A stretch of 64,000 nucleotides of DNA from Candidatus Zixiibacteriota bacterium (GTDB lineage: Bacteria; Zixibacteria; MSB-5A5; GN15; FEB-12). Of this stretch, positions 6,964-55,366 are shown one piece after another. The stretch covers positions 2,551 to 66,550 of the forward strand of contig JBFMGC010000004.1 of assembly GCA_040752815.1 (NCBI GenBank). The letters are read 5' to 3'. Within the stretch, counting starts at the first letter, position 1, and the number at the start of each line of letters is the position of its first letter. The notes beneath the pieces are model-generated. The model saw nothing but the letters and a program-made list of their open reading frames with translations. It ran no database searches and had not been told where the DNA came from. The position numbers were made by a program, and so were the translations under genes.

Positions 6964-9645
6964 ATGAAGACAGTAACTGACAACGGCGAAAAGAAATCAA
7001 CCGCCTACTCGGCGGCTGAGATCGAGAATAGGATTTATCAGCATTGGGTGGAGGCGCGCTTTTTCCACGGCTCCTCGGAGTCAAAGAAGAAGCCGTATTC
7101 TATTGTGATTCCACCCCCCAATGTCACCGATGTCCTCCACCTCGGCCACGCCCTGAACAACACCATTCAGGACATCCTGATACGCAAACATCGGATGGAG
7201 GGGTTTGAGAGCGAGTGGCTGCCGGGCACCGACCACGCCGGTATAGCAACCCAGGTGATTGTCGAAAAGCAACTGGCCAAAGAGGGTACGACCCGCCGCG
7301 AAATCGGGCGCGAGAAGTTTGTCGAGCGCACCCGCGCTTGGGCCTATCGCAATAAGGACATTATCCTCAGCCAGTTGCGGCGGATTGGCTGCAGCTGCGA
7401 CTGGGAGCGCACCCGGTTCACCCTCGACGAAAACCTTTCGCGCGCCGTCAGCGAGGTCTTCATCCACCTCTACAACAAAGGCCTGATCTACCGCGGCCAC
7501 CGTATCGTGAACTGGTGCCCGTCGTGCCGGACGTCGCTGTCCGACGACGAGGTCGAACACGAGACCTTCAAAAGCCACCTCTGGTACGTGCGATACAAAA
7601 TCAAAGGCTCGGACGAGTACCTGACCGTTGCTACGACCCGCCCGGAGACAATGCTGGGCGATACGGCGCTGGCAGTGTCACCAAAAGACAGCCGTTACAA
7701 AAAGCTGGTCGGCCGCACCGTTATTCTCCCTATCCTCGAGCGGGAGATACCGATTGTCAGCGACAGTTATGTTGACCCAGAGTTCGGCACCGGGGTAGTC
7801 AAAGTGACCCCCGCTCACGACCCTAACGACTTCGAAATCGGCAAGCGACACGATCTGCCGGAGATCAATATCCTAAACACCGACGGCACCCTCAACGAGA
7901 ACGCGGGCAAGTACAAAGGGTTGGACCGTTACGAAGGCCGCAAGGCGCTAGTGACCGATCTCGAAGCCAAGGGGCTGCTGGAAAAGACTGAGGATTACGA
8001 GCTCTCGGCCGGGACCTGCTATCGCTGCCATTCGGTGGTGGAGCCGTATCTCTCGCTGCAGTGGTTTGTCAAGATGCGCGAGCTGGCCAGCCCGGCTGTG
8101 GAAGTACTCAAGAAGGGCGAACTCCGCTTCCACCCCGACTACTGGGCCAAGACTTATCTCCACTGGATGGAGAATATTCGCGATTGGTGCATCTCCCGGC
8201 AACTCTGGTGGGGGCATCGCATCCCGGTCTGGTACGCCGAGGACGGCACCGCGTTTGTCTCAGTGGATCGACCCGCGGCCGAACAATGCCCCGGCTATGA
8301 CCCGGCTACTCTGGTCCAAGACGAAGATGTTCTCGATACCTGGTTTTCGTCGTGGCTCTGGCCGTTTTCTACGTTCGGCTGGCCCGATAAAACACCGGAA
8401 CTGAGAAAATTCTATCCCACCCGCGTTCTCGTTACCGCCTCGGAAATCATCTTCCTCTGGGTGGCGCGGATGGTCATGGCCGGTTTCGAGTTCATGGGCA
8501 AGTGCCCGTTCAGCGATGTCTATATTCACGGGACGGTGCGCGACGCCAACGGGATCAAGATGTCGAAGTCGCTCGGTAACGGAATTGACCCGGTGGAGAT
8601 TATTGATAAGTACGGCGCGGACTCTCTTCGCATATCGCTGGTGCTGGCCACGCCCGACGGCCAGGACCCGTGGATCAGCCGCAATACTTTCGAGGGCGGT
8701 CGCAACTTTGTCAACAAGCTCTACCAGGTATCGCGTTTTGTCATGCTTCGCCTCGAGGGTCGGTCCCCGGTGTTAGACAAGCTCGATGAATCCGACCTGG
8801 TCATTTTCGACCGCTGGATCCTCTCGCGGCTGGAGCGGACGATTGCGTCGGTGGAGCGATCCTTCGACGAATTCCGCCTCTCCAGCGCCGCCAAGACGCT
8901 GTACAACTTCGTCTGGGAGGACTACTGCTCCTGGTATGTCGAGCTGATTAAGCCGGATCGCCCGGGTGAGCCGATCCGCGAAAACTCGCTGAACGTAGCC
9001 ACCTATGTTCTGGCCCGCATTCTGCGGCTGCTGCACCCGTTTATACCGTTTGTCACTGAGGAAATTTACGGTCAATTGGTGGCTTCCGCCGGCAGGAGCG
9101 AGCGCGACGCTACGCTAGTGTTCGGCCCGTGGCCGAGCTCCGACGGCAGGCATGTCGACGATCGTCTCGAGGAAAGCCTGAAGCAGATTCAGGAGGTGGT
9201 TGTGGCGGTTCGCTCGACCCGATCGGAGTTGAACGTGCCGCCGGGCAAGCGGTCGGATTTGTATGTTCGCGTGAACAACGAATCCTTCGCTCGACTACTT
9301 GAGGATCACATACAGTACTTTCGCTCGCTCGCCCGGGTCGAGAATCTGCATTGTGGAACCACGGTCAAAAAGCCTCCGCTCTCAGCCTCAGCGGTTATCT
9401 CAGGAGCGGAGATCTTCATCCCGCTGGAAGGACTGATCGATATCGAGGTGGAGAAGACACGCTTGAGCAAGGAACTGACCAATTTGAAGGACCAACAGGT
9501 CAAGGTCGCCAAGAAGCTCGCGAACCCCGATTTCCTGGCCAACGCGCCGGCCGAGGTTATCGACCGCGAGAAGCTCAAGAAACGCGACTACGAAGAGCGT
9601 ATCGAGCGGATCAATAAGAATCTTGAGCAGATTCTGGGGTGGTAA
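6964..9645 (+). CDS. valS: valine--tRNA ligase
   Basis: 893 aa. HIGH-type motif (DVLHLGHALN), KMSKS (IKMSKSLGN) and a C-terminal coiled coil. Confidence 0.97.
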   Translation: MKTVTDNGEKKSTAYSAAEIENRIYQHWVEARFFHGSSESKKKPYSIVIPPPNVTDVLHLGHALNNTIQDILIRKHRMEGFESEWLPGTDHAGIATQVIVEKQLAKEGTTRREIGREKFVERTRAWAYRNKDIILSQLRRIGCSCDWERTRFTLDENLSRAVSEVFIHLYNKGLIYRGHRIVNWCPSCRTSLSDDEVEHETFKSHLWYVRYKIKGSDEYLTVATTRPETMLGDTALAVSPKDSRYKKLVGRTVILPILEREIPIVSDSYVDPEFGTGVVKVTPAHDPNDFEIGKRHDLPEINILNTDGTLNENAGKYKGLDRYEGRKALVTDLEAKGLLEKTEDYELSAGTCYRCHSVVEPYLSLQWFVKMRELASPAVEVLKKGELRFHPDYWAKTYLHWMENIRDWCISRQLWWGHRIPVWYAEDGTAFVSVDRPAAEQCPGYDPATLVQDEDVLDTWFSSWLWPFSTFGWPDKTPELRKFYPTRVLVTASEIIFLWVARMVMAGFEFMGKCPFSDVYIHGTVRDANGIKMSKSLGNGIDPVEIIDKYGADSLRISLVLATPDGQDPWISRNTFEGGRNFVNKLYQVSRFVMLRLEGRSPVLDKLDESDLVIFDRWILSRLERTIASVERSFDEFRLSSAAKTLYNFVWEDYCSWYVELIKPDRPGEPIRENSLNVATYVLARILRLLHPFIPFVTEEIYGQLVASAGRSERDATLVFGPWPSSDGRHVDDRLEESLKQIQEVVVAVRSTRSELNVPPGKRSDLYVRVNNESFARLLEDHIQYFRSLARVENLHCGTTVKKPPLSASAVISGAEIFIPLEGLIDIEVEKTRLSKELTNLKDQQVKVAKKLANPDFLANAPAEVIDREKLKKRDYEERIERINKNLEQILGW

Positions 9646-9792
9646 TTCGGGCCACAAGCCGGTGGAAGCGCGCGTTTTGCAGAACCACAATTGTCGCTCG
9701 CTGACGCTTGCTCCGCTCAGGTTCTCCCCTACGATTAGCTTCTGGTACTGCCCGACGCTCCGACCGCCAGACAGGGCATCCCGCAGAAATGA

Positions 9793-9826
9793 AAACCGTC
9801 CGGGGGGAACCGGACGGTTTCGTTGA
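9793..9826. terminator. bidirectional rho-independent terminator
   Basis: 11-bp stem AAACCGTCCGG (9793-9803) / CCGGACGGTTT (9810-9820). An A-tract lies 5' and a T-tract 3', so both strands read stem plus U-run. It sits 34 nt after the minus-strand gene end and 148 nt after valS. Confidence 0.7.
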
Positions 9827-9853
9827 GAAGAGGTATATCAAAAAGAGAAGGGG

Positions 9854-10303
9854 TTAGTTTTGACTTTTCTTTACCATATCTTCAAGGAAGCCTTGCATAG
9901 TCCGGGCGCCGGCGGTGTCGGGATACGACGCGATTTCGACCGGGATCGCTCGATCGGCCTGGTCACCGTAGCGAGCCTTGAGACTGCCCTTGACGATCTC
10001 AGTTAGCCGCCTGGCGGCGATTTCCGCCCCCTGGCGAGGGGTTTCCGGCTGCAACACAGCCAAACAATGGCCCATCAGAAGGTCGACGTGATCACACGCC
10101 CTGACTGCCGCCTTAACTCGGCTGGTCACGTCCTCAAGGACCTCCGCGGCTTGATCGGCGGCGATTTCTCGGGCCGGCCCCAGGTCAATAATCGTAAGGG
10201 AGACAAATACTCGGTACCGCTCAGCGCGATTGAGTTCAACCGCCACTTTGTCCGCGAACGTCCCGGGACACCGCGTATCGATGGTGGTTCTCGGTGCTTC
10301 CAT
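9854..10303 (-). CDS. stand-alone degenerate GGDEF-fold protein (A-site MGHCL, I-site RxxD retained)
   Basis: VRACDHVDLLMGHCLAVLQPET aligns without gaps to the PleD-type VRAIDLPCRYGGEEFVVIMPDT. The upstream RAERYRVFVSLTIIDLG and downstream VEIASYPD match GGDEF-core positions. RBS GGAG lies 8 nt before the ATG. Confidence 0.6.
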   Translation of the reverse strand: MEAPRTTIDTRCPGTFADKVAVELNRAERYRVFVSLTIIDLGPAREIAADQAAEVLEDVTSRVKAAVRACDHVDLLMGHCLAVLQPETPRQGAEIAARRLTEIVKGSLKARYGDQADRAIPVEIASYPDTAGARTMQGFLEDMVKKSQN

Positions 10304-10362
10304 AATCGTTGCTCCACCAAACGGGGCCGTCGTCTGGCATACCTACCTATCTGGTTAGTGTG

Positions 10363-10378
10363 AGCAATAATCGTTCCA
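10363..10378 (-). promoter_or_regulatory. sigma-54 (-24/-12) promoter
   Basis: The minus strand reads TGGAACGATTATTGCT, versus the consensus TGGCACG-N4-TTGCW. GG and GC spacing is exact and 11 of 12 conserved positions match. It lies about 60 nt upstream of the ATG at 10303 and downstream of a bEBP gene. Confidence 0.6.
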
Positions 10379-10664
10379 GTTACCTAATAAGGAGATACGC
10401 GGGAAAACGTTTCCGACCTGAGATCTCGCCCGACGCTTTAGCCGCACTAACTGCTTGTCATGCACGTAGAGGACACTGTGGACAACATCATGATCTGGTC
10501 GTGACATCCACATGACACCTCGACATGTGCAGAGGGGTGCTCAAAACTTGCACAGGGGGACATGATGGTATGTATGGGAGTTTTCTGATTGTGCCGCTGG
10601 GCGACCCTGCCCGGCGGAATGTGCGCCATCCCACTCTCAAGCGCGTGGGCCACCGAAGATGGCC

Positions 10665-12095
10665 CTAAGATGTCGAGTTGAGATTATAGTCTTTGATCTT
10701 GTAGAGCAGGGACCGGTAGCTTATGTCCAGGAGTTCGGCCGCCTTGCGGCGGTTCCAGTTGGTCTTGGTCAGGACCTCGGCAATAAGTCGTTTCTCTTCG
10801 GCAGCGACCTTTCTGCCGACTCTCCCTTTCAGAGAATAACCGACTTCAGCCTCACCCTCTGCCGGTATGGGCGCGATCACCGGTTCCGAGGGCGGCCGGG
10901 GATCCTCGGGGCGTGCCATGTGCGCGGCAGCGGCGATAAGCTCCGTGATTATCTGCTCGTCGGAGCGCACCACCACCTGCTTGACCATATTCTCGAGCTG
11001 GCGGACGTTGCCGGGCCAGTGGAAGGCCATCAGCCGGGCGACCGTTTCGGGCGTCAGTGCCTGGTACTCCTTGCTGTAGAGCTTGTTGTACTTGGCCAGG
11101 AAGTGAGTCAAGAGCAGCGGTATATCTTCTTTTCGATCCCGCAAGGGCGGCAGGAACAACGTGATTTCATTGAGGCGGTAAAACAGATCGTCACGAAATT
11201 CCCGGCTGGATATGGCATGCTCAAGATTGCGGTTAGTGGCGCAGATGATTCGGACATCCACCCGGATGTTGTTGATTCCGCCGACCCGCACGAACTCCTG
11301 CTGCTCGAGTACTTGAAGCAGTTTTGACTGCAGTTCCAGCGGCATATCGCCGATTTCGTCGAGGAATATGGTCCCCTTGTTAGCTGATTCAAACCGACCC
11401 TGCTTGGTTTTGTGCGCGCCCGTAAAGGCGCCTTTCTCGTACCCGAAAAGCTCCGCCTCAAGTAAGTCACGGGGAATGGCGGCACAGTTCACTTTGACAA
11501 ACGGCTGATCCCGACGCGAGGACAACTGGTGCAGAGAACGAGCCACGATCTCCTTACCGGTACCGGACTCACCTCGTATAAGCACAGTCAACTCCGAGTC
11601 GGCCACCTGATCGATTATTCCCTTCACGCGGGCCATCGGTTCGGAATCGCCGACAAATGTTGAGTAGTCGCTGCGCGCTTCCAGCTCTTTCTTCAGAGCG
11701 GAAACCTCCTCCCGAAGTTTCACCCGCTCCATCACACCGTTCAGGTGAATCTCCACTTCACGGACGTCGAACGGCTTGTCGATAAACTCGGCCGCCCCAA
11801 GCCGCATGGAGTCGACCACATACTTGGTGCCTCCATGACCGGAGATCATAACTACCTCGGGCCGGTTCTCCATCTTGTTCAGCTTCTCCAGGACCTCCAG
11901 GCCGGTCATGCCGGGCATCTTGATATCCAGCAGAATCAGGTCCGGTTTCTCCGTGGAGACCATTTGAATGCCCTGGATTCCGTCGGTAGCCGACACAAAC
12001 TCGAAACTCGTAGACAGCCCTTCGGAAAGAATCCAGGCGATCTTGGGATCGTCGTCGATAACCAGCACTTTGATCTTGGCTTTTTCGCGAGGCAT
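10665..12095 (-). CDS. sigma-54-dependent response regulator (NtrC family: REC + AAA+ + Fis-type HTH)
   Basis: REC (VLVIDDD...LILLDIKMPG), Walker A GESGTGKE, GAFTGA loop (YEKGAFTGA), C-terminal HTH (NWNRRKAAELLDISYRSLLYKIK). ATG at 12095 has a GAGAGGG RBS. The ORF-track start at 12140 is a TTG without an RBS. Confidence 0.93.
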   Translation of the reverse strand: MPREKAKIKVLVIDDDPKIAWILSEGLSTSFEFVSATDGIQGIQMVSTEKPDLILLDIKMPGMTGLEVLEKLNKMENRPEVVMISGHGGTKYVVDSMRLGAAEFIDKPFDVREVEIHLNGVMERVKLREEVSALKKELEARSDYSTFVGDSEPMARVKGIIDQVADSELTVLIRGESGTGKEIVARSLHQLSSRRDQPFVKVNCAAIPRDLLEAELFGYEKGAFTGAHKTKQGRFESANKGTIFLDEIGDMPLELQSKLLQVLEQQEFVRVGGINNIRVDVRIICATNRNLEHAISSREFRDDLFYRLNEITLFLPPLRDRKEDIPLLLTHFLAKYNKLYSKEYQALTPETVARLMAFHWPGNVRQLENMVKQVVVRSDEQIITELIAAAAHMARPEDPRPPSEPVIAPIPAEGEAEVGYSLKGRVGRKVAAEEKRLIAEVLTKTNWNRRKAAELLDISYRSLLYKIKDYNLNSTS

Positions 12096-12194
12096 AGTTG
12101 TCGCCCTCTCGAAGTTACTTATCGGCAACAAATCCTGCAATTTAAGTCAGAATCTACCGCCGTTGCCGAAAAGTCGCAATAACCTGCAATAGAA

Positions 12195-14336
12195 TCAAGG
12201 TTTATATGGGAAATACACAGAGACCGTGGTCCCCTTGCCTTCGACGGAGCTCAGATGCAGCGTGCCGCTGTGTGCGGAGATGACCCGCTCCACCACGGCC
12301 AGTCCGAGGCCGGTACCAGTCTCTTTAGTTGTGAAGTAGCGATCAAACACTCGGGACAAGTGCTCTTTCTTGATACCACAGCCGGTGTCCGAGACGTGGA
12401 TGCCGAGGTAGTCTTCATGGCGGTGGGGGGGTCGCTCGATCCGTCCGGTCACAGTCAACTTGCCGCCGTCGCGCATGGCGTCAACCGCGTTAATGAACAG
12501 GTTGAGAAAGACCTCCATCACCTGGTTCTTATTGGCGATGATCTCCCAGTTGCCATCGGAAAAATCGGTTGAGTACTCAATCCGATTCTTCCTCAGGTCA
12601 GGCCCGACAAGCTCGGAGGCTCGCTGAACTATATGGCGCAGGTCGAGCTTGGCGGTTTCATAACGATTGGGATTGGAAAAATTGACCAGTTCCTTGACAA
12701 GGTCGTTCATGCGGTGGATTTCTTCCTCCGCCATCTTGAAGAAATCCGACTTCTCGGTGATATCCGGCCAGCGCTGGCGGAGTATCTGCAGCTCGCCTTT
12801 GATAGTCGTGAGAGGGCGCCGCAGATCGTGCGAAATCTCAGAGATCATGTTCCCCATGGTCATGAGGCGGGTGGCGTTGAGCAGCGCTTTTTCCTTTTCG
12901 AACAGCACGGATGCCTGTGAAATGACCAACTGGGCTAGCGTGAAATCCTCCGGTGAATAAGCGCGTTCGTCGTCGGCACCGAGATAGAACACGAATGCCA
13001 GCTCGCCTGAACGCAAGATGGGAACCGCCATATAGGCGTGGGCCGGCTGGGGAAAATGTTTGTTGCCCCGGATCCGGTCTCCGACGAGTTGACTCAGCGC
13101 GGCTATATCTTCGAGATTCACTTGATCGGGATTGAGCCCGGTGATGAGGACCGCCTCGCGACTTACTCTCGAGAGATCGATCTTGCCGCTTTCGGTGAGC
13201 GGTATATCGGTCTTTCCCAGGGCGCCGGCCGGTATAAGCGCCCGGGCAGCGTTATCCCAGGCGAACCAGATCGCATAGTCGACTGGGAAAGCCCGGCGGA
13301 GCTTCTCGATCAACACCTGGCGAAAGTTTTCCCACGAATCGATCCCGGGCAGAGCGCGTGAGATCTGATGCAGCACTTCGTATTCTACCAACCGACGTCG
13401 GTTCTTTTCAAACTGGGAGGCGTCATCTACCGCCACAGCAGCTTGCGAGGCGAAATTGCTCAGCAGGCGGAGATCGTCACTCGTAAACACCTGGCCGCCG
13501 TTTTTATTGGCCATGTTTATGACCCCGAGCACGGTGTTCTTGATCCGCAGCGGCGCGCAGAGGAGCGACGCCGCGCCGTACCGTTCCCGGTTTATCCTCT
13601 GAAAACGACTGTCCTTCTCGACATCCTCGACAATAAGCGGCTCGCCGGACTTAGCAACGAATCCGGCGATAGAAGCCCCCAGGGGCAGCTTGGTCTTGCG
13701 GACGATGTCGTCGTGAAGGCCGATAGCCGCCTCAATGGTCAGGTATTGACCGGTTTCGTCCACCAGCATAATCGAGCCGACATTGGCCTCAGTCACAGTC
13801 GAGGCCAGGATGACGATCTGGCGCAGCAGGTCATTGAGGTTCGCCAGCGAACCTATCGACTTACCCGCCTCGTAGAGGGCGTTGAGTTCCCCCACACGCT
13901 GCTGGAGAATGAGATTGGAGAGGCGGAGTTCTTCCACCAATCGCAAGCGGGCGAGCTCGGACTCGCGACGCTCCAGGGCGCGGGTTACCGACAGCTCCAG
14001 GCGATCAAAATCGACCGGCTTGAGAAGGTAATCGTAAGCGCCCAGACTGATGGCCTCCAGCGCGCTGTCCATCGACGCGTACCCGGTCAGCAGGATGACC
14101 GGGATGCCCTCATCGACCTGCTTGACTATCTGGAGAATCTCCAGACCGTCGAGAACGGGCATTTTGATATCCGAGATGACGAGATCGACTTTCTGGTCAC
14201 GGATCGCCTTGGCGGCATCGGGCGCCTGCTGAAAGGCGAGGACTTCGCGTCCGTCTCCCTGTAGCAGCGCCGAGAGTGACTCGCACAAACGGAGTTCGTC
14301 GTCGACTATGAATATCCGGGCAGCGGGTTTGGTCAT
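12195..14336 (-). CDS. hybrid sensor kinase REC-GAF-GAF-HisKA-HATPase (no TM segments seen)
   Basis: N-terminal receiver (IFIVDDE...LVISDIKMP), two GAF-like regions, H-box ISEISHDLRRPL, and G-boxes DTGCGI / GTGLGL. ATG at 14336 lies 5 nt after the upstream stop. Confidence 0.88.
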   Translation of the reverse strand: MTKPAARIFIVDDELRLCESLSALLQGDGREVLAFQQAPDAAKAIRDQKVDLVISDIKMPVLDGLEILQIVKQVDEGIPVILLTGYASMDSALEAISLGAYDYLLKPVDFDRLELSVTRALERRESELARLRLVEELRLSNLILQQRVGELNALYEAGKSIGSLANLNDLLRQIVILASTVTEANVGSIMLVDETGQYLTIEAAIGLHDDIVRKTKLPLGASIAGFVAKSGEPLIVEDVEKDSRFQRINRERYGAASLLCAPLRIKNTVLGVINMANKNGGQVFTSDDLRLLSNFASQAAVAVDDASQFEKNRRRLVEYEVLHQISRALPGIDSWENFRQVLIEKLRRAFPVDYAIWFAWDNAARALIPAGALGKTDIPLTESGKIDLSRVSREAVLITGLNPDQVNLEDIAALSQLVGDRIRGNKHFPQPAHAYMAVPILRSGELAFVFYLGADDERAYSPEDFTLAQLVISQASVLFEKEKALLNATRLMTMGNMISEISHDLRRPLTTIKGELQILRQRWPDITEKSDFFKMAEEEIHRMNDLVKELVNFSNPNRYETAKLDLRHIVQRASELVGPDLRKNRIEYSTDFSDGNWEIIANKNQVMEVFLNLFINAVDAMRDGGKLTVTGRIERPPHRHEDYLGIHVSDTGCGIKKEHLSRVFDRYFTTKETGTGLGLAVVERVISAHSGTLHLSSVEGKGTTVSVYFPYKP

Positions 14337-14340
14337 GGCG

Positions 14341-15717
14341 TTACGGCTTGGCCACCAACGGAAGGTGTATATCGAAACAGCCCCCGTGGTCTGCATTCGT
14401 ATAGATTATCGACCCCTTGTGGCTTTTGATGATACTCTGACAAATGGACAGTCCCAGGCCGGAGCCGTCATCACCCTTGGTCGTGAAGAACGGCTCGAAA
14501 ATGCGCGGGATGACTTCCGGTGGGATGCCGGGGCCGGTGTCGGCGAAGCGAACGTGTGCCTCGTTGCCGCGGCGGTTGAGTTCCACCGTGAGTCGTCCAT
14601 CCTGTTTCATGGCGTCGCGCGCATTCAAGATCAGGTTCAGAAAGACTTGTCGGAGGTGGTCGGCGCTCCCTTTCACAAACAGCGGCTCGGACGACAGTTT
14701 TCTCTGTATGTCGATTCGGGAAATCGAAAGCTGGCGCGAGGACAGCGCCAGGGTTCCGTCGAGAATCTCTCGGAGGTCCACGACGGCGAATTCGACCCGC
14801 GACGGCCGGTGAAACCGCCGCAGCTCCTCGACGATTCTGGCAATCCGATCGATCTCCTGGCTGACTACCTCGACATAGTGCTTCTGTTTGTCCGGCTCGC
14901 CGCCGGAACGCTGCAGCAGCAACAGGTAGTTCTTGATAATACCGAGCGGGTTGTTGACCTCATGGGCGATTTTGGCCGACATCTCGCCGAGCGTAGCCAG
15001 CCGCTCCGCCTGCATGAGCTGACTCTGCGCCTCCCAGAGTTGTTCATTGGCTGCCTTCTCCCCTTCATAGAGGCGGGCGTTTTCAATAGCGACAGAAATC
15101 TGGTTTCCCAGCGACGAAATAAACTCTATTTCGTCCTGTGTAAACGCCTTCTCGGCGATCTTGTCGGCCAGCAGAAACAGCCCGGCCAGGCGGGTTTTGT
15201 AAATGAGCGGGACCAACATACCGCCTTTGAAGAAGCCAAGCACCTCTCTCTCCCTCACCGTGGTTAGGTCAGGCGAGAGATCCACCACCGGTGTCGGTCG
15301 GTTCAGTCGACTGAGATACCGTATGAGCCGGGTGTCATCCTGGAAGCCGCTTCCGGCAGGCGGCATGGCTCCGGACCCCTTCGCTTTGGCCAGCCGGAAC
15401 TCGCGGGAATCGGCGCTCTCTTTCAGAAAAAGGGCGGCCCGAAGCGCGCCCACCTGTCCCAGGCAGGTGAAGATGAACGACTCGAGAAGAGTTTTGTAAT
15501 CCAGCACCGCGTTGAAATTGCGGCTGATTTCGAATATCGTGTAGAGATCGAAGATCTTGCGCTTGAGCTGACGATTGGTCCGCGATAACTCCTCCAAGCG
15601 GGCCTCTGCGGATTTCTCCGGTTCGGGCGGGCGCTTTTTGAGCGGCGAGGGGCGAGTTGCCCGTGGGATTGACGCGCTTCGCTTTCCCTTGAGATGGCTG
15701 TCCCTGGTTCGGGCCAT
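14341..15717 (-). CDS. soluble GAF-domain sensor histidine kinase
   Basis: Basic Lys/Arg/Pro-rich N-terminal tail, a coiled coil, a GAF region, H-box SAKIAHEVNNPL, and an ATPase domain (DTGPGI, GSGLGL). Its ATG overlaps the folC stop by 1 nt (TAATG). Confidence 0.88.
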   Translation of the reverse strand: MARTRDSHLKGKRSASIPRATRPSPLKKRPPEPEKSAEARLEELSRTNRQLKRKIFDLYTIFEISRNFNAVLDYKTLLESFIFTCLGQVGALRAALFLKESADSREFRLAKAKGSGAMPPAGSGFQDDTRLIRYLSRLNRPTPVVDLSPDLTTVREREVLGFFKGGMLVPLIYKTRLAGLFLLADKIAEKAFTQDEIEFISSLGNQISVAIENARLYEGEKAANEQLWEAQSQLMQAERLATLGEMSAKIAHEVNNPLGIIKNYLLLLQRSGGEPDKQKHYVEVVSQEIDRIARIVEELRRFHRPSRVEFAVVDLREILDGTLALSSRQLSISRIDIQRKLSSEPLFVKGSADHLRQVFLNLILNARDAMKQDGRLTVELNRRGNEAHVRFADTGPGIPPEVIPRIFEPFFTTKGDDGSGLGLSICQSIIKSHKGSIIYTNADHGGCFDIHLPLVAKP

Positions 15718-53790: not shown

Positions 53791-54702
53791 TTACGGGATG
53801 GCCGCCTGCGGAACTGATTCCACACCCAGCGGCGTCACCACACGCACCCCGCGCTCACGGCCACTCTTGTCGCGGTAAACCAGCAGCGACTCAAACATCT
53901 CTCCCGTCCCGGCCGAACCGAACATCGACTGCAGCGAAAACGAAACGGCGAACACGCCGTCTTCCACTCGTCGATTCACTCGCTTGACAAGCAGACTCGG
54001 CGACGGCGACGGGAACCAATCCAGCACATCTTTTGCAGCGACCTCGGGACTGGACAGATACAGAGTGACAATCATCGCTTTGTCGTTGGTGGAATCGGGC
54101 GATAATTCGGCTTGCGCCGACCATCCGGCACGATCGGAAGCGACCGGCAGTAGTTCCTGCAACGCACGAAATCGCAACGCGTGTGTGCTTGTTTGAACTG
54201 ACAATGAGTGAACGCCTGCCATCGGCAGATCGAGCGTGAGCGTCGCCTTGCCGGGGATGCATTCGTCGTGGCAGACCATCCAGTTTACTTGCGCACCCAG
54301 CCGGACCGCCGCGCCGGGTTCGATGTTATCGGGTGGTCTGACCTCGGCGGTCAACAGCACCGAATCGACATATCCGTAGGTGGTCAGAGGACCGTTTTCA
54401 ACAAAGCGGGTCGGTATCGGCCATTGGAGTTCGCCTACTGACCAGCCATCGGGGACCGTCCAGCGTATGTCGGTCGGCAGACCGGCGTCGCCGGAATACT
54501 TCCAATACACGTGCCACTCGGGATCGATTTTGAGCAGGACACCAACCTCGAACGGTTCACCCATTCGCGCCGTATCGGTAGACGCAACCAACTCGGCCCA
54601 GACCGGGTGGCGAGCCGTTTCGTCGCCGCAACCCGCAGAGACGAGCAACGCACACGCCGCCAGGCCGAGCGATAACGTCAAAAACCGGATGCGTTTCGGC
54701 AT
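53791..54702 (-). CDS. lipoprotein with DsbD-alpha-like (thiol:disulfide interchange N-terminal) domain
   Basis: Lipobox LLVSAGC after MPKRIRFLTLSLGLAA (ATG at 54702). HVYWKYSGDAGLPTDIRW...ELQWPIP and VNWMVCHDECIPG match the DsbD N-terminal-domain pattern. The C-terminal ~130 aa are unassigned. Confidence 0.65.
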   Translation of the reverse strand: MPKRIRFLTLSLGLAACALLVSAGCGDETARHPVWAELVASTDTARMGEPFEVGVLLKIDPEWHVYWKYSGDAGLPTDIRWTVPDGWSVGELQWPIPTRFVENGPLTTYGYVDSVLLTAEVRPPDNIEPGAAVRLGAQVNWMVCHDECIPGKATLTLDLPMAGVHSLSVQTSTHALRFRALQELLPVASDRAGWSAQAELSPDSTNDKAMIVTLYLSSPEVAAKDVLDWFPSPSPSLLVKRVNRRVEDGVFAVSFSLQSMFGSAGTGEMFESLLVYRDKSGRERGVRVVTPLGVESVPQAAIP

Positions 54703-54706
54703 CAAC

Positions 54707-55366
54707 CTACTGGGCGTACTTGACACCGCAGCCGTACGGTTTGGTTTCGGCTACTGTCACCGGCTTGCCCGCGAAAATGTCGTCGAGCGCCTGGCTAACG
54801 TAACTGACCTTGCCCTTGGCATCTTTCTGATTCTGCGGGTCATCGTCCACAGCACCAGCGTAGCGGAGAACGCCATCCGGAGTGATAATGTAGACATGCG
54901 GCGTGGTCTTGGCGCCGTACATCTTGCCGACGGCGCCGGTAGGGTCAAGCAGGATGGGATGCTGGATCGACCACTTGGACTTGCGCTCGACATCGCCGCC
55001 GAACTGCGGATGGTCGGGGTTGGTCGAGTTGATGGCAATGAATGCAACATTACGTTTGTCGTAGGCGGCGTACAGGTTGCCGAACGTATGGTTGACTTCA
55101 AAGTGGCGGATGACAACCGGACAGTTGGCATTGAACCAGTAGAGAACGACCGTCTTGCCGGCGTCGAGATACTGCTTCAGAGTGTGGGTCTTGCCGTCGG
55201 TATCCGGCAGACTGAATACCGGCGCGGGCTTGCCGATTTCGGCGACTGGCGATACGGTTGTAGCCGGCTCGGTATTGGCTTTTGCATCGTTATCGGCATG
55301 GCCGGACGAGATGGCGACAAGTGTCAGCGCCGCCAAAGCGCCGGCGTACTTTGCAACTGATGACAT
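54707..55366 (-). CDS. secreted thioredoxin-fold (redoxin/TlpA-like) protein
   Basis: Signal peptide MSSVAKYAGALAALTLVAISSGHA. APVFSLPDTDGKTHTL...VVLYWFNANCPVV...TTPHVYIITPDG. AGGAG RBS 5 nt before the ATG at 55366. Confidence 0.75.
   Translation of the reverse strand: MSSVAKYAGALAALTLVAISSGHADNDAKANTEPATTVSPVAEIGKPAPVFSLPDTDGKTHTLKQYLDAGKTVVLYWFNANCPVVIRHFEVNHTFGNLYAAYDKRNVAFIAINSTNPDHPQFGGDVERKSKWSIQHPILLDPTGAVGKMYGAKTTPHVYIITPDGVLRYAGAVDDDPQNQKDAKGKVSYVSQALDDIFAGKPVTVAETKPYGCGVKYAQ

Follow-up and report, generated by a model that had tools for sequence, protein, structure and literature searches.

Promoters of the NtrC/glnAp2 type, which also include AtoC/atoD, ZraR/zraP, and DctD/dctA, are built with an exact spacing between the -24 GG and the -12 GC, and the activator, which has a REC-AAA+(GAFTGA)-Fis-type-HTH architecture, is encoded by a gene adjoining the target. 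TGCA-containing sites are located on one fixed face of the helix, 100-200 bp upstream, with a possible IHF-like bend, and the locus described here is alike in each of these respects. PelD and PopA, which are degenerate GGDEF receptors with an RxxD site, resemble the product of the present target gene in that the GGDEF fold is kept, the GG(D/E)EF motif is lost, and the RxxD motif is invariant. A third point of reference is FleQ, a sigma-54-type activator that itself binds c-di-GMP (PMC3424551) and that, like the present locus, places a sigma-54-type activator and c-di-GMP-related proteins in one circuit. A full-text literature search for sigma-54/RpoN in Zixibacteria found no papers. The analysis presented here concerns a 361-bp intergenic gap that very probably constitutes a complete sigma-54 control region for a 149-aa gene.

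The window referred to throughout is the whole 64-kb stretch of DNA that was analyzed. The target gene (9854..10303, minus strand), a monocistronic ORF, encodes the 149-aa stand-alone protein with a degenerate GGDEF fold, and valS is its convergent neighbor on the downstream side. The gap extends from 10304 to 10664 between the activator stop codon and the target ATG at 10303. Its location directly downstream of a bEBP gene carrying a GAFTGA loop, as given in the preliminary description, was confirmed by the ORFs and their Pfam domains. This activator gene (10665..12095, minus strand) encodes a response-regulator bEBP with Pfam REC, AAA+ sigma-54 interaction (GAFTGA), and HTH_8 domains. Upstream and in the same direction lies a hybrid sensor kinase gene with the Pfam domain order REC-GAF-HisKA-HATPase (12195..14396, minus strand), and the first gene of the signaling cluster encodes a second sensor kinase, GAF-HisKA-HATPase (14341..15717, minus strand); both kinases are syntenic in most of the related loci. 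The kinase ORFs overlap by 56 nt (14341-14396) if the first ATG is taken as the start of the hybrid kinase. Because homologs of the hybrid kinase align from residue 18-21, the ATG at 14336 is the likelier start, and the 4-nt gap that it leaves between the kinase genes suggests translational coupling. The GC fraction was 0.48-0.49 over 10300-10449 versus 0.56-0.66 in the flanking genes, and the AT-rich island reported earlier is therefore real, if only mild. Directly after the activator stop codon, the window contains an 8-bp GC-rich hairpin, GGGCCATC-TTC-GGTGGCCC (10640-10661, minus strand), which has no T-run, is specific to this genome, and is a local structure that was not significant (z = -1.8).

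The assignment of the activator was based on Pfam and NCBIfam profiles. The Pfam matches were Response_reg (8.9e-25), Sigma54_activat (1.3e-72), and HTH_8 (1.2e-11), and the protein has the receiver, Walker A, GAFTGA (residues 236-241), and Fis-type HTH expected of an NtrC-like response-regulator bEBP. The ORF extends to a TTG at 12140, which gives a length of 476-491 aa; homologs align from about residue 12-20, and the ATG at 12095 is thus the likely start. The best NCBIfam matches were AtoC and NtrC, both below their equivalog cut-offs (424.8 bits against 558.6 for NtrC, TIGR01818; 430 against 714 for AtoC, NF008469), which places the activator in an unnamed subfamily. Among its orthologs, 73 of 74 retain GAFTGA and 70 of 74 retain Walker A. 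An RpoN-box motif search of the window and the 80 fetched loci found no rpoN ORF; the conserved GAFTGA activator and the promoter described below point to the presence of sigma-54 in the genome.

Autoregulation of the activator was also considered. No sigma-54 promoter was found near the first kinase, and an autoregulatory promoter upstream of the activator was rejected, since elements were present in only 3 of 58 loci (L060, L076, and L077) and a match in L040 was poor. The three elements, TGGCACCGGAGTTGCC, AGGCACAATTTCTGCT, and AGGCACGAAAACTGCT (L060:4184-4199, L076, and L077:4181-4196), are sigma-54-like and precede the activator gene by about 60-115 nt, in the interval that separates it from the hybrid kinase gene. 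They belong to one divergent clade and are absent from the window, which hints at a possible autoregulation of the activator in that clade only.

For comparison with relatives, a scan at one genome per species yielded 80 loci, nearly all of them labeled Zixibacteria or carrying related MAG names, and the gap comparisons were made on 81 gaps, that is, the window plus the 80 syntenic loci. The 213 homologs of the 149-aa protein are about 140-170 aa long and include one with 100% identity, an NCBI hypothetical protein from a Candidatus Zixiibacteriota MAG. In tblastn searches with the window proteins, the order kinase-kinase-activator-gap-149-aa gene, with a convergent valS, was recovered in nearly all 80 loci. 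Activator orthologs were 64-88% identical (in the 78 loci where one was found) and target orthologs 33-61% identical. Loci from which the kinases are missing still keep the activator-target pair.

A near-consensus sigma-54 promoter had been proposed from the letters of the window alone, and the element was located as described. The -24/-12 sequence TGGAACGATTATTGCT (10363..10378, minus strand) has its GG at 10377-10376 and its GC at 10365-10364, exactly 10 nt apart as in TGGCAC-N5-TTGCW. Against TGGCACG-N4-TTGCW the GG/GC spacing is exact and a single conserved base differs, an A for the C beside the GG. The ATG at 10303 follows 60 nt after the end of the element, with the target gene on the same strand, and the GGAG ribosome binding site that had been noted with it was read at 10312..10315 (minus strand), 8 nt before that ATG. 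Across both strands of the 64-kb window, the consensus with at most one mismatch had 2 matches versus 0.65 expected, and 14 of 100 shuffles equaled this count, for which reason the match in the window proves little on its own. The other match, TGGCACGTGTATTGGA (54501-54516, minus strand), is without the -12 GC, falls within a 311-aa ORF (53791-54726), and is probably due to chance.

The case for the promoter was carried by the orthologous gaps; conservation at syntenic loci had been set as a check on the proposal, and the proposal passes it. The pattern GG-N8-TTGC[AT] was present in 81 of 81 gaps at the expected place and in the expected orientation, and its GG preceded the start codon by 21-100 nt (median 67). 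In the remainder of the 1.66 Mb of loci, the loose pattern was matched 138 times on both strands, or about 0.012 times per 140 nt, and it is this difference that places the promoter beyond chance; the strict family pattern occurred only 4 times elsewhere in the same 1.66 Mb. Several positions were conserved that the search pattern does not force, namely an A two bases after the GG in all 81 gaps, followed by Y and then R, and a T after the GC in 80 of 81, which gives the family pattern nGGAAYR-N4-TTGCT. The columns that flank the element carry about 0 bits over the 81 gaps. As the element is kept while its flanks are not, the sequences have diverged and the element is under selection, and its conservation does not reflect shared ancestry. 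Close consensus matches elsewhere in the loci were mostly a recurring coding motif of valS. In many loci a conserved stretch of the valS coding strand yields near-consensus strings such as TGGAACGATTATTGCT (for example L051:4271, L057:8514, and L079:7210; about 8914 in the window), so that promoter scans of this lineage will repeatedly pick it up as a false positive.

Directly after the GG, 73 gaps have A, 8 have T, and none has the consensus C, which is unusual for a strong sigma-54 site. GGAAC is also the classic -35 core of ECF promoters, and with the consensus C of TGGCAC never present here, the element could be read as the -35 box of an ECF-type promoter of the sigma-70 family. The probability of this reading is close to negligible. 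The invariant TTGCT exactly 4 nt after GGAAYR has sigma-54 geometry, whereas an ECF spacer is normally unconserved; the columns 16-17 nt downstream of GGAAC, where a -10 would be expected, carry less than 0.3 bits; and a bEBP gene with a distant, phased upstream site fits sigma-54 and not ECF. The ECF reading was accordingly ruled out on geometry and conservation over the 81 gaps. For the sigma-54 promoter, the usual geometry predicts that transcription begins near 10352, with a leader of about 49 nt. In many loci a weak TGAACAAA-like motif (0.4-0.7 bits per column) was seen 25-32 nt past the first G of the GG, which corresponds to about +1 to +8 of the predicted transcript; it was not evident in the window at about 10352-10345 (AGATAGG).

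A candidate enhancer was defined by aligning 77 gaps with MAFFT, refining a PWM, and calculating the information content of each column. In the window it is TCCCCCTGTGCAAGTTTTGAGCACCCCTCTGCACA (10526..10560, minus strand), which contains three cores on the minus strand, TGTGCA (10554-10549), TGAGCA (10543-10538), and TGCACA (10531-10526). The 35-bp block is conserved in 76 loci with the family consensus tgTGCa-W5-TGnGCA-N6-TGCAy and up to 2 bits of information per column. It was the best PWM match in the whole 64-kb window at 24.7 bits, the next reaching 8.3, and the PWM scan of the window returned no second copy of the block or of a family-type promoter. The preliminary description had looked for activator sites in the same part of the gap with partial success. 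The direct repeats that it named, GTGCAGAGGGG (10527-10537) and TTGCACAGGGGG (10548-10559), are located as given and overlap the two outer TGCA cores; alignment and PWM show a middle core that had been overlooked and G-runs that are peculiar to this genome. The GGGG tails of these repeats were rejected as a part of the enhancer, as they are not conserved across the gaps. The inverted pair TGTCATG/CATGACA and the surrounding CATG-dense segment did not survive as enhancer candidates, for they show no column conservation, and the pair is at chance level because the 361 bp contain four 7-nt inverted pairs in all. Of its two halves, CATGACA is at 10511-10517 as reported and TGTCATG is at 10456-10462, one base off the 10457-10463 given for it.

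The distance between block and promoter was found to be strongly constrained. The window block starts 183 bp upstream of the GG, and in 59 of 76 loci the distance is within +/-4 bp of the median of 185.5. Among the 17 outliers, 14 depart by whole helical turns to within 2.5 bp (135/136, 155, 165, 176/177, 195, and 209 bp), although the statistical support for phasing is modest (p ~0.03) and comes from non-independent loci. A conserved site is thus present 80-200 bp upstream of the promoter with spacing that depends on helical phase. The L056 locus has an insertion of 2.3 kb between the activator gene and the block (L056:3377-5929), including a 701-aa ORF that runs on the opposite strand, and its block is still 182 bp from the promoter. 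The conserved block is likely the enhancer of this promoter, as judged from sequence comparison. In most relatives the block begins 25-50 nt after the activator stop codon, and in the window 104 nt after it. Five loci (L067, L073, L074, L078, and L079) have extra TGCA, TGCGCA, or ATGCAT cores in the first 60 nt after the activator stop, which suggests that a longer array of activator sites may be present in those lineages.

The wiring of regulator to target put forward earlier is borne out by the activator-target order in nearly every locus and by the block at a fixed, helically phased distance. It is nevertheless conceivable that the sigma-54 promoter is genuine and that the TGCA-rich block is bound by another protein, either a different bEBP or a repressor, with the neighboring activator a bystander or acting on other targets. 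Cores of the TGCA type are generic among Fis-type HTH proteins. An insertion of about 410 bp separates block from promoter in L075 (L075:4883-5522), where the block remains beside the end of the activator gene with the promoter about 600 bp away, and the block-promoter unit is therefore not absolute. This alternative is nonetheless improbable, given that activator and target stay side by side in nearly all 80 loci, including those without the kinases, that the HTH region of the activator, NWNRRKAA..L.ISYRSLLYKIKDYNL, is nearly invariant across orthologs in step with the invariant DNA block, and that the activator gene is the only enhancer-binding protein gene in the 64-kb window, in which the block is also present only once. 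Synteny, together with the parallel invariance of HTH and site, would assign the block to the neighboring activator.

Between the block and the promoter, no base-specific conservation was found across the loci, and the stretch about 72-102 bp ahead of the GG is AT-rich. The window has a weak and tentative IHF-like site there, TGACAAGCAGTTA (10448..10460, minus strand), with 2 mismatches to WATCAANNNNTTR; this site precedes the GG by 81 nt and lies halfway from enhancer to promoter. When up to one mismatch was allowed, IHF-like matches were present in 35 of 69 loci versus 15.9 expected, with clusters at 82-85 and 94-95 nt before the GG. These observations are suggestive only of a possible IHF-like bend between enhancer and promoter.

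Other signals that could drive the 149-aa gene were sought in and around the gap. No sigma-70-like promoter, intrinsic terminator, or Rfam family was found in 9600-10800, and no conserved hairpin or terminator follows the activator stop codon across the loci. As no conserved terminator separates the activator from the gap, read-through could also reach the target. The 149-aa gene might then be expressed mainly by read-through from the kinase-activator operon, with a -24/-12 element that is non-functional or merely bound by sigma-54, and the finding that all of the genes run in the same direction would suit such an arrangement, as would the missing terminator and hairpin. We regard it as highly improbable that read-through is the main route. 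A non-functional site would not be expected to be kept in 81 of 81 divergent gaps with neutral flanks, and expression by read-through needs no gap of 270-400 bp with a position-locked block. In L056, where the 701-aa gene lies on the opposite strand between activator and target, read-through is unlikely. Transcription of the target from its own sigma-54 promoter remains the preferred reading.

The description of the target as a degenerate GGDEF protein was upheld by profile and structure comparisons. With the single sequence, the match to Pfam PF00990 had E = 0.022 (15.0 bits, below the cut-off of 23.8), and the match to TIGR00254 was 1.4e-4 (21.6 bits, below the cut-off of 37.4). A 31-sequence family profile compared with PDB diguanylate cyclase domains gave E = 1.7e-9. 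The AlphaFold2 model of the target had a pLDDT of 78.6, and the top 50 Foldseek matches were all GGDEF domains, with TM-scores of about 0.5-0.65. The position aligned with GGEEF reads MGHCL in the window and is variable across the family, and nothing in the protein corresponds to the conserved motif that follows the DxD strand; the GG(D/E)EF active-site motif and the GTP- and metal-binding residues of an active diguanylate cyclase are lacking. Taken at the level of sequence and model, the target is a catalytically dead GGDEF fold. An RxxD motif is located five residues upstream of the GGDEF position, as in an I-site; its R68 and D71 are invariant in the 31 sequences and align with RQSD, REVD, and RKSD of solved GGDEF domains, at the inhibitory site of c-di-GMP-bound structures. 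The family also has invariant motifs of its own, RAERY, PETxRQxAE, and SxPDxxGA. The target may bind c-di-GMP through the RxxD site and would then most likely be a c-di-GMP-binding effector or adaptor.

The elements can be combined into a mechanism of the following kind. RNA polymerase with sigma-54 would bind TGGAACG-N4-TTGCT (10378-10363) as a closed complex, and the activator (10665-12095) would be phosphorylated through the two GAF-domain kinases. The phosphorylated activator would assemble on the TGTGCA-W5-TGnGCA-N6-TGCAy block (10560-10526), about 185 bp upstream, and would loop the DNA, possibly aided by an AT-rich, IHF-like bend midway. With ATP and its GAFTGA loop, it would then open the promoter for a start near 10352. 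The predicted product is a stand-alone GGDEF-fold protein that would be unable to make c-di-GMP and that retains the RxxD inhibitory-site motif.

A module of this composition, with sigma-54, an enhancer-binding protein, and an upstream site, is standard, and the switch is of a well-supported and ordinary kind. Because the mechanism is textbook sigma-54 biology, its value is in annotation and hypothesis generation and not in a new concept. The analysis provides a testable link between regulator and target with exact coordinates in an uncultivated phylum, leading from the kinases through the activator, enhancer, and promoter to the degenerate GGDEF protein. The comparison of 80 genomes also supplies a promoter and enhancer model that is ready for scanning Zixibacteria genomes. 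The loci form a natural data set on enhancer-promoter spacing, and a conserved family of small GGDEF-like proteins is flagged as probable c-di-GMP effectors. A broader proposal, which is speculative and at present rather unlikely, is that the system is a single-gene sigma-54 regulon across the sampled Zixibacteria-affiliated genomes, in which a two-kinase phosphorelay induces, as the only output, a small c-di-GMP-binding sponge or adaptor, made of a lone, catalytically dead GGDEF domain with its RxxD site intact, that re-routes signaling while c-di-GMP synthesis is unchanged, and in which the TGGAAY box and the rigid 185-bp spacing reflect either a lineage-specific preference of sigma-54 or a deliberately weak, tightly activator-dependent promoter.

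Set against the known systems, the locus has three minor oddities, namely the invariant TGGAAY -24 box, the rigid 185-bp spacing, and the single small degenerate-GGDEF output. The binding block is compact and has three cores, in contrast to the two separate 17-bp dyads of NtrC, and every one of the 81 loci has TGGAAY and not TGGCAC as its -24 box. A 149-aa signaling protein is the only target visible, unlike the metabolic operons of the NtrC/glnAp2 type, and the activator differs from NtrC and AtoC in belonging to an unnamed subfamily that scores below both equivalog cut-offs. Compared with PelD and PopA, the target stands alone at 149 aa, has no partner domain, carries its own invariant motifs, and is under sigma-54 control, and its binding of c-di-GMP is a prediction only. 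Finally, in contrast to FleQ (PMC3424551), the circuit here has an activator of the conventional phospho-receiver type and yields the GGDEF-like protein as its transcriptional output.
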